64,000 nt of DNA from Longimicrobiales bacterium. GTDB lineage: Bacteria > Gemmatimonadota > Gemmatimonadetes > Longimicrobiales > Gaopeijiaceae. The stretch spans positions 224,001 to 288,000 of the forward strand of contig CBDCNQ010000003.1 in the NCBI GenBank assembly GCA_965219445.1, given 5' to 3'. Shown one piece after another: positions 56,111 through 59,198 of this stretch. The position numbers and the translations under genes were made by a program. Positions within the stretch are counted from its first letter, which is position 1. Each line of letters starts with the position of its first letter. The notes below the pieces were generated by a model. It made no database searches. It saw nothing but the letters and a program-made list of their open reading frames with translations, and was not told the origin of the DNA.

Positions 56111-56300
56111 TCGGCCTCGTCCCCCAGCGAGGGCTTGCGGAGCTAGGATCAAAGGCATCATAGGGGCATGGCGACCGCTACCGGTACCGATCAGCAGCTA
56201 AGCAGCCCGAAGACGAAGAGGCGTTCTCCTCCGGGAGCGGGTGCGCGTTCATCATTATTCGCGCAAGCAAGCAACCCAACCCGTCCTACCCAAGAGGAGG

Positions 56301-57362
56301 ATGCCCATGGAGAGGTATATCGGACTCGACGCACACGCGTCGAGCTGCACGCTGGGGATTGTAGGCCCCAGCGGCAAGCGCTTGGGCTCGCAGGTGGTGG
56401 AGACGAACGCGCGGGCGCTGATCGAGGTGCTGCGAGGGATTCCGAGGAACCGGCACTTATGCCTGGAAGAAGGGACGCTGTCGGGGTGGCTGTACGAGGT
56501 GCTGAAGCCGCACGTGGAGGAGCTGACGGTGGCGGGGGTCGGCAAGAGCCGGGGCCCGAAGACCGACAAGCTGGACGCGTTTGCCCTGGCGGAGAAGCTG
56601 CGGATCGGATCACTGGAGACGACGGTCTACAAGAACCGGGGCCAGTTCAGGCGGCTGGGGGAACGGGCGAAGAGCTACGACTTCTTGGTCGGCGACACGG
56701 TGCGGGTGAAGAACCGGCTCAAGAGCGTGCTGCGCTCGAGAGGAGTGGCCTACGGCGCGGGGCGCTCGGTCTACTTAAAGCGCGACCGGGAGGAGTGGTT
56801 GGCCAAGCTGCCGGAAGCGAGCAGGACGACGGCCGGGTTGCTGTACGAGGAGCACGACGCACTCGTGGCATTGAGGGCGAAGGCCGAGAAGGCGTTGCTG
56901 GCGGAAGCACGCAAGCATCGAGAGTGGCATGTGCTGAAGACGTGCCCGGGTCTGGGTCCGATCCGGACGGCGGAGCTCCTGCCGGTGGTGGTGACGCCGT
57001 ACCGGTTCCAGAGCCGGAGCAGGTTCTGGGCGTACTGCGGACTGGGCGTCGTGATGCGGAGCTCGTCGGACTGGGTGCGGGGTCCGGGTGGGCGGTGGGT
57101 AAGGGAACCGGTACAGCAGACGCGGGGGCTGAATCGGAACTTCAACCACACGCTGAAGCGTGTGTTCAAGGGCGCAGCGACGACGGTGATCGGTCGGGCC
57201 GAGGACGAGCCCTTGTACCGCCACTACGAGCGACTCCTGGAGGGGGGCACGAAGCCGAATCTGGCGAAGCTGACGATCGCGCGTCAGCTCGCCTCGATCG
57301 TGCTAGCGGTGTGGCGCACGGGCGAAGCGTACGACCCCAAGAGACTGGAAGCGACGGAGTAA
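56301..57362 (+). CDS. IS110-family DEDD transposase/recombinase
   Basis: IGLDAH, LEE, KTDKLDA, PG.GP, AY.GL....RSS, AR.LA; GAGGAGG RBS. Confidence 0.96.
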   Translation: MPMERYIGLDAHASSCTLGIVGPSGKRLGSQVVETNARALIEVLRGIPRNRHLCLEEGTLSGWLYEVLKPHVEELTVAGVGKSRGPKTDKLDAFALAEKLRIGSLETTVYKNRGQFRRLGERAKSYDFLVGDTVRVKNRLKSVLRSRGVAYGAGRSVYLKRDREEWLAKLPEASRTTAGLLYEEHDALVALRAKAEKALLAEARKHREWHVLKTCPGLGPIRTAELLPVVVTPYRFQSRSRFWAYCGLGVVMRSSSDWVRGPGGRWVREPVQQTRGLNRNFNHTLKRVFKGAATTVIGRAEDEPLYRHYERLLEGGTKPNLAKLTIARQLASIVLAVWRTGEAYDPKRLEATE

Positions 57363-57439
57363 ACCGGGCCGGGATCGGCGAGCGTGGGGTCGAAAGCGGT
57401 CACAACATGGGGTCCGACGAAACGGAAGCGAACCGGTTA

Positions 57440-57571
57440 CAGGGGACAGCATCCATACACACCGTGGGCCGGGGCAGAGAGCCCAAGCCCCCACTCAAAG
57501 GCTATGCACCCCTGGAGAGCCGAACGAAGCGATGGGCCACAGAGTCCCAGATAGAAGGATGGTTCCCGCTC
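57440..57571 (+). ncRNA. bridge/seek-type guide RNA core (target- and donor-binding loops)
   Basis: Two hairpins whose internal loops carry TACACACC + TCAAAGG (target) and ATAGAAGG + GATG (donor). True transcript ends are unknown. Confidence 0.8.
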
Positions 57572-57847
57572 CAGAGCGGAGAACGCGACGGCTGTGAACG
57601 TCTTCCGGACTGCGATGCGGACCCTGCGAGCGCACCCCTCCCCACCCTGAGTCGTCGACCGGGCAATCCAAACCATGCGGACGCCGACGGTCAAAAAATG
57701 AGCCGACGGCGCGTGGGGAAGGTGCGTCTTGACCGCCAGCCCCATAGAAGGGTGTGTAAAAAAAGAGGCGACGTACCTTTCCGCTAGGTAGTAAGAAGTT
57801 AACCAGCGAATCCCGGGTGAGCGCCCGGGGGAAAGGAACGATGCCTC

Positions 57848-59092
57848 GTGAGGAAGAATATGGTGGGACCCGAGAGTGAGTCCAGCACGCCGACGTGGGA
57901 GTGCTTGGAAGCGCTGGTTCGTGAGAAGGCCCAGGAGATGGTCCAGCGGATTCTGGAGGAGGAAGTGACGGAGTTGCTCGGCCGGGAGAAGTCGGAGCGG
58001 AAGACGGTCGTAGACCCGGCGCCAGGCTACCGCAACGGCTACGGCAAGGCTCGGCGGCTGGCGATGAGCTCGGGCACGATCATGCTCCGACGGCCCCGGG
58101 TTCGAGGCATTGAGGAGCGGTTCGAGAGTCGGGTGTTGCCGTTGTTCGCACGACGGACGAAGGAGGTGGGTGCTCTGCTTCCGGAGCTGTATCTGCACGG
58201 GCTGGCGGAGGGAGACTTCGAGCTGGCGATGCGGGGCCTGCTGGGCGAGGGGGCCCCGTTGTCGAAGTCTTCGATTTGGCGGCTGCGGGCGGGATGGACA
58301 AGGAAATTCGAGGAATGGTCGAAGCGCTCGCTGGCCGACCGTGAGGTCGTCTACGTCTGGGCGGACGGGATCTACGTGAAGGCGGGGCTCGAGCGGGACA
58401 AGGCAGCGCTGCTGGTGGTTCTCGGTGCGATGCGAGATGGTACGAAGGAGGTGTTGGCCCTGAGATCGGGCTACCGAGAGTCGGTCGAGTCCTGGTCCGA
58501 GGTGTTGCGGGATCTGAAGGCACGCGGCATCGAGGCGCCCCGGCTTTTGATGGCGGACGGCAACGCGGCGATCTGGGGCGCAGTACGGCAGGTATGGCCT
58601 GAGGCGGGCGAGCAACGGTGCTGGAACCACAAGATGAGGAACGTGCTGGACCGGCTGCCTCAGCGGGAGCAGAGCGAGGCGAAGGACCTTCTCAGGACCG
58701 TGGTCTACGCACCGAGGCGGTCCGAGGCGCTGAAGGCCCGTGAGGCGTTCGCCAGGCGCTACAGACCGTGGTATCCGAAGGCGGTGGATGTACTCGAGGA
58801 CGACTGGGAGCGGATGGTGGCGTTCTACGACTTCCCCGAGGACCACTGGAAGCATCTACGCACGACGAACGTGGTCGAGAGCCCCTTTGCCGCAGTACGG
58901 CTCAGGACAACGGCGGCGAAGCGCTTCAAGCGGGTCGAGAGCGCTACGGCGCTGATCTGGAAGCTGCTCTTGGTGGCGGAGAAGCGCTTCAGAAGGCTCG
59001 ACGCTCCTCACCTCCTCAAGGACGTATTTGAAGGAAGAAAGTTCGAAGACGGAAAGCCCGTCTCAACCCAACAGCGGAAAAACGCCGCCTGA
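57848..59092 (+). CDS. IS256-family (mutator-type) transposase
   Basis: YRNGY, Y.WADG, ES..SW..L.DLK.RG, ADG, QRC.NH, LRTTN.VE. Confidence 0.96.
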   Translation: MRKNMVGPESESSTPTWECLEALVREKAQEMVQRILEEEVTELLGREKSERKTVVDPAPGYRNGYGKARRLAMSSGTIMLRRPRVRGIEERFESRVLPLFARRTKEVGALLPELYLHGLAEGDFELAMRGLLGEGAPLSKSSIWRLRAGWTRKFEEWSKRSLADREVVYVWADGIYVKAGLERDKAALLVVLGAMRDGTKEVLALRSGYRESVESWSEVLRDLKARGIEAPRLLMADGNAAIWGAVRQVWPEAGEQRCWNHKMRNVLDRLPQREQSEAKDLLRTVVYAPRRSEALKAREAFARRYRPWYPKAVDVLEDDWERMVAFYDFPEDHWKHLRTTNVVESPFAAVRLRTTAAKRFKRVESATALIWKLLLVAEKRFRRLDAPHLLKDVFEGRKFEDGKPVSTQQRKNAA

Positions 59093-59198
59093 AACATTTA
59101 CACACCTATTGACCCAACCTCGGGCTTGCGAACGCGATGGGTCTGCACAGAGGTTGTGTTCCCTCACGAGCAGGCTACCGAGAACCAGGAGTCGATCG

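Follow-up and report, generated by a model that had tools for sequence, protein, structure and literature searches.

The locus

The window, the 64,000-nucleotide stretch of contig CBDCNQ010000003.1 analysed here, contains an IS256 element spanning 56140-59121 with its left inverted repeat (IR) interrupted by an IS110-type element (Table 1). The outer part of the interrupted IR is backed by empty alleles in three other genomes (G006, G007 and G444), and the ends of the IS110-type element by 24 left junctions in its own genome and by their conservation among homologs. Downstream of IS256, between 59028 and 61066, lie ORFs which we take to resemble a molybdopterin oxidoreductase and a cytochrome c (SoxCD-like).

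Table 1. Features of the IS110-type element and of the IS256 copy that it interrupts (window coordinates)
Feature	Coordinates	Strand	Basis or remark
IS256 target-site duplication, left copy (GGGCTTGCG)	56131-56139	+	9 bp; sequence
IS256 left IR, outer part	56140-56154	+	left target flank TCAA (56149-52), core AG (56153-54)
IS110-type element	56155-57750	+	1596 bp with one AG core copy (57749-50)
Predicted -10 box of circle-junction promoter (CATCAT)	56156-56161	+	17 nt from TTGACC
Sub-terminal imperfect inverted repeat, left arm	56160-56173	+	two bulged A; sequence
DEDD recombinase/transposase, 351 aa	56307-57362	+	D8, E54, D87, D90, S253
Hairpin 1, target-binding loop of predicted bridge RNA	57440-57514	+	fold, alignment of relatives
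Top-strand target guide, 10-nt loop	57455-57464	+	57456-63 complementary to GGTGTGTA; covariation, 66 distinct guides
Bottom-strand target guide, TCAA plus core AG	57495-57500	+	covariation, 43 distinct guides
Predicted handshake dinucleotide GC	57501-57502	+	first two left-end bases
Hairpin 2, donor-binding loop of predicted bridge RNA	57519-57563	+	alignment of relatives
Likely top-strand donor guide ACGAAGC	57524-57530	+	5/7 pairs with left end GCATCAT; +5 covaries
Bottom-strand donor guide ATAGAAG (right end plus core)	57551-57557	+	covaries with right-end variants
Predicted -35 box of junction promoter (TTGACC)	57729-57734	+	
Sub-terminal imperfect inverted repeat, right arm	57734-57745	+	sequence
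IS256 left IR, inner part	57751-57767	+	right target flank GGTGTGTA at 57751-58
IS256 (Mutator-family) transposase, 414 aa	57848-59092	+	PF00872; NF033543 above cut-off
IS256 right IR	59094-59121	-	TCAATAGGTGTGTA at the equivalent place, not used
IS256 target-site duplication, right copy	59122-59130	+	

The recombinase of the inserted element matches PF01548 (39.7 bits, cut-off 29) and PF02371 (32.4 bits, cut-off 21.3), and scores 112 bits against NCBIfam NF033542, under the cut-off of 140. Its residues D8, E54, D87, D90 and S253 are invariant across 33 homolog proteins, with S253 aligning with the serine of the IS621 SG motif, and in a Foldseek search its AlphaFold model (pLDDT 84) was closest to IS621 and ISCro4 (E 1e-13, TM 0.60, 18-20% identity). 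The best matches on annotated plasmids were at most 27% identical and no relatives of the element were found in viral contigs. Judged by these matches the recombinase is a divergent member of the IS110 family in the broad sense. The non-coding DNA of the element lies mostly 3′ of the gene (388 nt, compared with 152 nt 5′), and the motifs that the preliminary description had placed there are all present: CAGGGG at 57440, TACACACC at 57456-63, TCAAAGG at 57495-501, CCCCTG at 57509-14, GATG at 57531-34 and ATAGAAGG at 57551-58, as are the flanks TCAAAGG at 56149 and GGTGTGTA at 57751 and the reading TCAATAGGTGTGTA in the right IR.

Structure of the predicted bridge RNA

Taken as a single sequence the region folds with ordinary stability (z of -1.45 over its full length and of -0.88 to -1.78 over segments of it), such that relatives were needed to establish the structure, and the region had no Rfam match. 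From 219 loci, 163 passed the filters (at least 45% identity, at least 250 nt downstream, duplicates removed), of which 139 were parsed and 24 were not, giving 125 distinct rows, many of them missing one flank. The fold and covariation analysis against homologous flanks that had been proposed at the outset yielded a two-hairpin fold and covarying target guides. Among 55 relatives with RNAs less than 90% alike, 13 of the 25 pairs have changes on both sides, and 95.9% of cells are paired compared with 87.1% in shuffles, none of 500 shuffles reaching the observed value; pairing falls to 35-55% when the fold is slid. Hairpin 2 is as well conserved as hairpin 1, its helix 5 being 100% paired with two pairs that have changes on both sides. 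Both hairpins of the preliminary description are thus conserved, with altered bounds: the conserved inner stem of hairpin 1 begins after TGG and not at GTGGG/CCCAC, and hairpin 2 occupies 57519-57563 rather than 57517-57571. A motif, TGG then GT/GC-CC ... GAG-T/G-CCC, is common to the two hairpins (57440-57563), which look like products of a duplication.

Target guides and their registers

The reading of this RNA as a bridge or seek RNA with two target guides is supported by covariation in homologs and by the position of 23 of 24 copies at the target. The bottom guide matches the 4 nt before the core at a mean of 3.53 of 4 over 43 distinct guides (shuffled 1.69), and the top guide matches its flank at a mean of 6.36 of 8 over 66 distinct guides with the best of three registers taken (3.63 in shuffles under the same rule); none of 10,000 shuffles reached either value, tests that overstate certainty because the homolog rows are related. 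Guide changes occur on many branches of the tree. Where guides lie far from the consensus, the element's own guide matches its flank better than the consensus does in 30 of 38 rows for the bottom guide and in 22 of 27 for the top guide, and worse in three rows each. When the non-coding region of the window element, minus its last 30 nt, was dinucleotide-shuffled 20,000 times, both target matches arose together once. Guide and flank change jointly across proteins that are 50-100% identical: a 69%-identical protein with the same guides sits at the same site, and proteins 77-83% identical with other guides sit at other sites. The complement of the top strand precedes the bottom-strand match in the RNA, the order given for IS1111 seekRNAs in the available text of PMC11187229.

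The 10-nt top loop lies between fixed anchors and pairs clearly with the flank at offset 0 in 28 of 66 rows, at offset 1 in 14 and at offset 2 in 6, with shuffle means of 2.6, 0.7 and 0.2, respectively. Offset 1, that of the window element, is supported by the empty allele L230, which shares its flank with the filled L034. Offset 0 agrees with the published oriIS of ISCR27 and with an unoccupied site of oriIS type in the element's own genome (C3:19065); for offset 2 no empty allele was found among the genomes searched. Two relatives (L062 and L065) have one guide and two registers. These patterns suggest that the bottom guide sets the position of the cut and that the top guide can pair in three registers, a feature on which no paper was found in the literature listing on register shifts.

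Core and boundaries of the element

In relatives the base directly after ATAGAAG may be A, T or C, and in some of them the core reads AA and is matched by AA in each of the two loops. Because the +1 position varies in this way, and because AA cores sit 2 nt before the left-end G, the core is AG; a core of GG or of AAGG is ruled out by the same relatives. The core boundary first proposed was therefore one base off, the element occupies 56155-57750, and the last G of TCAAAGG and of ATAGAAGG falls outside the core. If the core is assigned to the left end, the element extends past the sub-terminal repeat by 7 bp (AG+GCATC) on the left and by 3 bp (AGA) on the right, the lengths given for IS1111 elements in the accessible part of PMC11187229. 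The arms of the 12-bp sub-terminal repeat can be aligned only if two A of the left arm are bulged out. Insertion is site-specific around the short core with no duplication beyond it, as seen at the one site held by 23 of 24 copies and in the empty L230 and filled L034 that share a flank.

Donor guides, predicted handshake and predicted junction promoter

Of the donor hairpin first described, the guide to the right end and core is supported and the guide to the left end is not. ATAGAAG tracks changes of the right end at positions -6, -5 and -3 and in the core, with 79 A/A, 14 G/G and one mismatch at -5 (n=94), and 85 G/G, 5 A/A and 4 mismatched at the core. GATG, formerly read as the left-end guide, occurs three times in the region and is uninformative alone; it matches left-end positions +2, +3 and +4 in 81, 81 and 72 of 82 RNAs, its bases overlap the TGG motif that also trails the target guide in hairpin 1 (118 of 125 rows), and its last G opens the hairpin inner stem. 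At left-end position +5 the first base of GATG matches in 52 of 82 RNAs, whereas base 57526 within ACGAAGC matches in 77 of 82. With its TG belonging to the TGG motif and its poorer match at +5, GATG was rejected in favour of ACGAAGC (57524-30) as what is probably the second, top-strand donor guide. This assignment is likely rather than proven, because all 82 RNAs show an A-A mismatch between ACGAAGC and left-end position +3, and the change at +5 arose only a few times.

The predicted handshake GC matches the left end at +1 in 82 of 82 RNAs and at +2 in 74 of 82, and so resembles the handshake guides of IS621, which favour insertion according to the text available of PMC13626964. For the corresponding base of the donor loop, a match to target +2 is seen in only 45 of 92 relatives and is lacking in the window element. 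Joining the ends by computation places TTGACC 17 nt from CATCAT, and the linear form is without a sigma-70 match; the circle junction was not seen in the genome or in the contigs of four runs, contigs being unable to show its absence.

Copies in the element's own genome

The element's own genome (G000; five contigs, 4.56 Mb) has 24 left junctions, 23 of them in an IS256 left IR and one elsewhere, in agreement with the target predicted earlier, TCAAAGGGTGTGTA. On the right side GGTGTGTA adjoins the element in 20 copies and follows a partial duplication in one, the others being split by a group II intron-like insert, truncated, or off-target (one each). All 22 full copies carry the same guides. 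That a mismatch of the right IR to the guide accounts for the choice of the left IR, as the preliminary description held, is supported by the right IRs of this genome, of which none of 29 is occupied by the element, and by a relative with a changed guide that has its left junction in a right IR (L039, n=1).

This genome has no exact empty copy of the 14-mer target, and its five empty left IRs carry one change each (TCAGAAG, TCGAAG, a 1-nt deletion, TCAGAG and GTGAGTA). The TCAGAAG allele reads as the left flank fused to the right end of the element. An origin of these mismatched sites as assembly artefacts was checked at one of the five (C4:199262), and there the allele recurs in flank-spanning contigs of two of four runs, of which one is possibly the source data. 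A further IS256-like left end (C1:205750), with two target mismatches (TCAAAGGGTGTGCC), is unoccupied.

The off-target copy (C2:336726) is flanked on the left by ACTCAAAG, which matches RNA positions 57493-500 over 8 nt, and on the right by GTGTGAC, its bottom-guide match being two nt longer than at the normal site; no empty allele of this site was found among 11 genomes of the genus. Within IS256 the element is found at the same base in at least four bodies, differing by 0-24, 46, 154 and 280 positions, which argues for repeated insertion, and within identical IS256 bodies the IS110 copies diverge by as much as 1.9%.

Several further arrangements were seen in this genome. At C4:1169760-1171670 (- strand) a 1.9-kb group II intron-like insert, with a GTGGG start, a CCCTATCCCGAT end and YADD in its ORF, lies 4 nt to the right of an IS110 copy, both of them within one IS256 left repeat, making three nested elements. 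At C5:1023334-1023423 the donor hairpin and the hairpin after it occur as a solo copy (89%) that lacks the transposase and the target loop, with its junction also appearing as loose ends in runs X5 and X6. At C5:1612735, and likewise at L191 and L216, the right end is joined at AG to a site inside the element itself, which at L216 is the top-strand guide loop; such structures could reflect either self-insertion followed by recombination or duplication. Matching 8-9 bp duplications flank only 9 of 24 complete IS256 copies, several flanks being swapped between copies, and the IS110 copies are mosaics of two haplotypes, which may have come about either by recombination between composites or by assembly mis-joins. 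A remnant left end with the oriIS-type flank GGATAG lies at C2:661546-661602, in addition to the empty oriIS-type site at C3:19065, and a search with a single query gave no IS91 transposase match in the genome. Finally, C5:1030810 is occupied with a junction one base short, and the same flank is empty in G007 (L233) with AA in place of the AG core, possibly an excision scar.

Empty sites in other genomes

In G417, with 5 occupied and 10 empty left ends, all 10 empty ends are mismatched, 8 of them by a change of the core from AG to AT, at least 5 of these 8 with their own duplication, and all 5 occupied ends share one +1 A variant. Likewise both empty ends of G272 are mismatched (2 occupied, 2 empty). 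In G007 (6 occupied, 5 empty) two of the empty ends are perfect; G006, which has no close copy of the element, has two perfect empty ends, its empty allele L230, with a flank as in the filled L034, carrying the exact 14-mer. In G444, with one left end occupied by a full-length copy, 45 of 47 empty left ends are perfect. The perfect empty sites of G444 (45) and G007 (2) contradict the notion that the element always saturates its targets, and presence of the element does not therefore imply saturation. A Fisher test on the empty sites was set aside, since the copies are non-independent and the groups were picked afterwards. The pattern fits guide-based filtering in genomes where the element has spread; selection for escape and the formation of scars would be further steps that one might infer from these alleles.

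Targets of relatives and retargeting

The commonest guide pair among relatives is GGATAG-GAA(A/T)TTCAA, the reverse complement of an IS91-family origin; for ISCR27 the accessible text of PMC8894482 gives oriIS as GCGGTTGAACTTCCTATACC, lying 236 bp beyond the stop codon of the transposase. Among the 99 relatives that have a right flank, 16 have an IS91 transposase pointing at the insertion site; the share is 11 of 53 where the flank reaches at least 800 nt, and within these 7 of 25 where the guides lie near the consensus. As such most oriIS-guided copies are without a detectable adjacent IS91.

Other relatives sit elsewhere. L114 and L096 adjoin an ISAzo13 or a DDE transposase. L197, L097 and L196 have the guide AACAAG and are inserted after GCCTAAC, which in L197 has a matching GTTAGGC 117 nt on, a site that we presume to be attC-like. 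Five copies in one genome (L082, L084, L085, L087 and L088) lie at CTAACAG/GCTGCTGAA, the start of a repeated sequence, and no transposase was found in the 5 + 15 ORFs scanned for their host element.

Two relatives bear on changes of target. L119 (69% identical) has the guides and the IS256 site of the window element and falls in another clade (support 1.0) among oriIS-guided elements, in a FastTree tree of 61 proteins with a poor midpoint root and no topology test; it may represent either a second origin of IS256 targeting or a transfer of guides. L039 (95% identical) has the guides TCACTAG and ATACGCACCG, with its left junction in an IS256 right IR, where the bottom guide TCACTAG matches TCAATAG at 6 of 7 positions, and in its genome six perfect left ends are empty. 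Its right flank is not IS256, such that this single case (n=1) amounts to half a site. Natural guide changes of this kind suggest that the recombinase and its predicted guide RNA may form a complete, potentially reprogrammable pair, as the preliminary description had proposed.

Proposed mechanism and alternative explanations

The reading preferred here, to which a probability of roughly 0.86 is given, is that the predicted bridge RNA guides the element's recombinase to the IS256 left end. By analogy with IS621 and ISEc11 the element would excise as a circle, the joined ends of which would form the promoter TTGACC-17-CATCAT. The RNA would be bound by the DEDD/serine recombinase, with hairpin 1 of the RNA-bound tetramer pairing with both strands of TCAA-AG-GGTGTGTA. 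The circle junction, ATAGA-AG-GCATCAT, would pair with hairpin 2, and the circle would be inserted by an exchange of strands at AG, with no bases lost or gained. The split left end probably disables that IS256 copy, such that copies with a changed site would remain free.

It is scarcely credible that the matches are due to chance or are relics of local duplication and that the protein alone picks the target: the motifs are short and the single-sequence fold z-scores unremarkable, but both target matches together are met in one of 20,000 shuffles, the guides change with the flanks across the 50-100% identity range, and the site follows the guides (shared at 69% identity, different at 77-83%). 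A narrower alternative, differing from the preferred reading only on hairpin 2, is that the working RNA is hairpin 1 alone (~75-85 nt), with the protein reading the ends through the sub-terminal repeats and hairpin 2 accessory. An 82-nt seekRNA sufficed for ISEc11 movement, as the available text of PMC11187229 reports, and the top-strand donor guide pairs poorly (5/7); set against this, hairpin 2 is conserved like hairpin 1, with helix 5 fully paired, and ATAGAAG follows the right-end changes at all four positions, which makes a hairpin 1-only RNA improbable.

Occupancy in the element's own genome raises a different question, namely whether a few guided insertions were followed by movement of the IS110-IS256 composite by the IS256 transposase, such that occupancy would not reflect repeated targeting. 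This is compatible with guiding, and as an account of occupancy it is unlikely, if less so than the loss of a role for hairpin 2. Most composites have identical IS256 bodies and the 5 of 5 occupied ends of G417 share the +1 A variant, as composite movement would have it, whereas at least four distinct IS256 bodies carry the element at one and the same base, and one copy lies outside IS256. The divergence of IS110 copies (up to 1.9%) in identical IS256 bodies also speaks against it, although recombination between copies could produce such divergence too, and target-site duplications cannot separate the two accounts.

Building on the preferred reading of guided insertion, a wider picture can be put forward that is speculative and, taken as a whole, rather doubtful. 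The elements would form a divergent clade of bridge recombinases that live on the ends of other elements and switch host by guide rewriting, with two independent moves from the IS91 oriIS to the left end of IS256 and one further move to its right end, and with a top guide that slides in three registers. They would be in an arms race in which the element plugs nearly every left end, and IS256 copies with a changed core or a scar of imprecise excision would be immune and keep spreading.

The divergent recombinase/RNA pair has its target, core and three of four guides fixed by natural covariation, with 24 copies in one genome, and is therefore a ready candidate for testing as a programmable tool. 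Natural retargeting becomes testable through the guide pair shared by two clades and the switch from left to right end at 95% identity, the register tolerance of the top guide bears on off-target rules, and the empty-site pattern may offer a simple model of parasite-on-parasite escape between insertion sequences.

Comparison with known systems

Both the RNA-guided mechanism (IS621, ISEc11) and insertion in the ends of other elements (IS1383, IS4321) are already known from the papers cited below. No paper on this clade was found in a search for IS110/IS1111 elements with IS256 ends or oriIS that covered literature listings, the starts of abstracts, few subscription papers, and passages of PMC11208160.

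Like IS621, the element has a DEDD and serine recombinase of the same fold, a predicted two-loop RNA for target and donor, a 2-nt core (its AG being the CT of IS621 on the other strand), a predicted handshake dinucleotide that matches the product and a predicted junction promoter (PMC11208160, PMC13626964, available text). It differs in that its RNA, located 3′ of the gene, reads the opposite strand, its protein is ~19% identical, its target is an IS256 end where IS621 targets REP (same sources), its top guide appears to pair in three registers, and its top donor guide has a fixed mismatch.

With ISEc11, ISKpn4 and ISPa11 of the IS1111 group it shares the 3′ non-coding region, the top-strand match before the bottom-strand match, the 7-bp and 3-bp extensions and natural reprogramming among relatives, so far as the accessible text of PMC11187229 describes them. 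Its sub-terminal repeat is imperfect (two bulges), unlike the perfect or near-perfect 11-13 bp of IS1111, and its C-terminal GLGIVMRSSS, with no proline and SS for SG, departs from the GL-P----S(t)G motif (PMC11187229), such that an IS1111-like layout is assigned and strict membership is not claimed. There is a weak similarity to the RNA-binding part of TIGR-Tas (NF052498 57 bits, cut-off 100; Foldseek E 5e-6), from which the element differs in having a full IS621-type recombinase, ends and a single RNA, with no tandem array.

IS1383, in the inverted repeats of IS1384 (PMID 11523772), and IS4321/IS5075, in the terminal repeats of the Tn21 family (PMID 14563872), are reportedly likewise IS110-family elements inserted at one place in the terminal repeat of another element. 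Unlike these, the element described here has IS256 as its host and uses the left end only, its guides are readable and covariation-tested, and its relatives carry guides for IS91 oriIS and attC-like sites.
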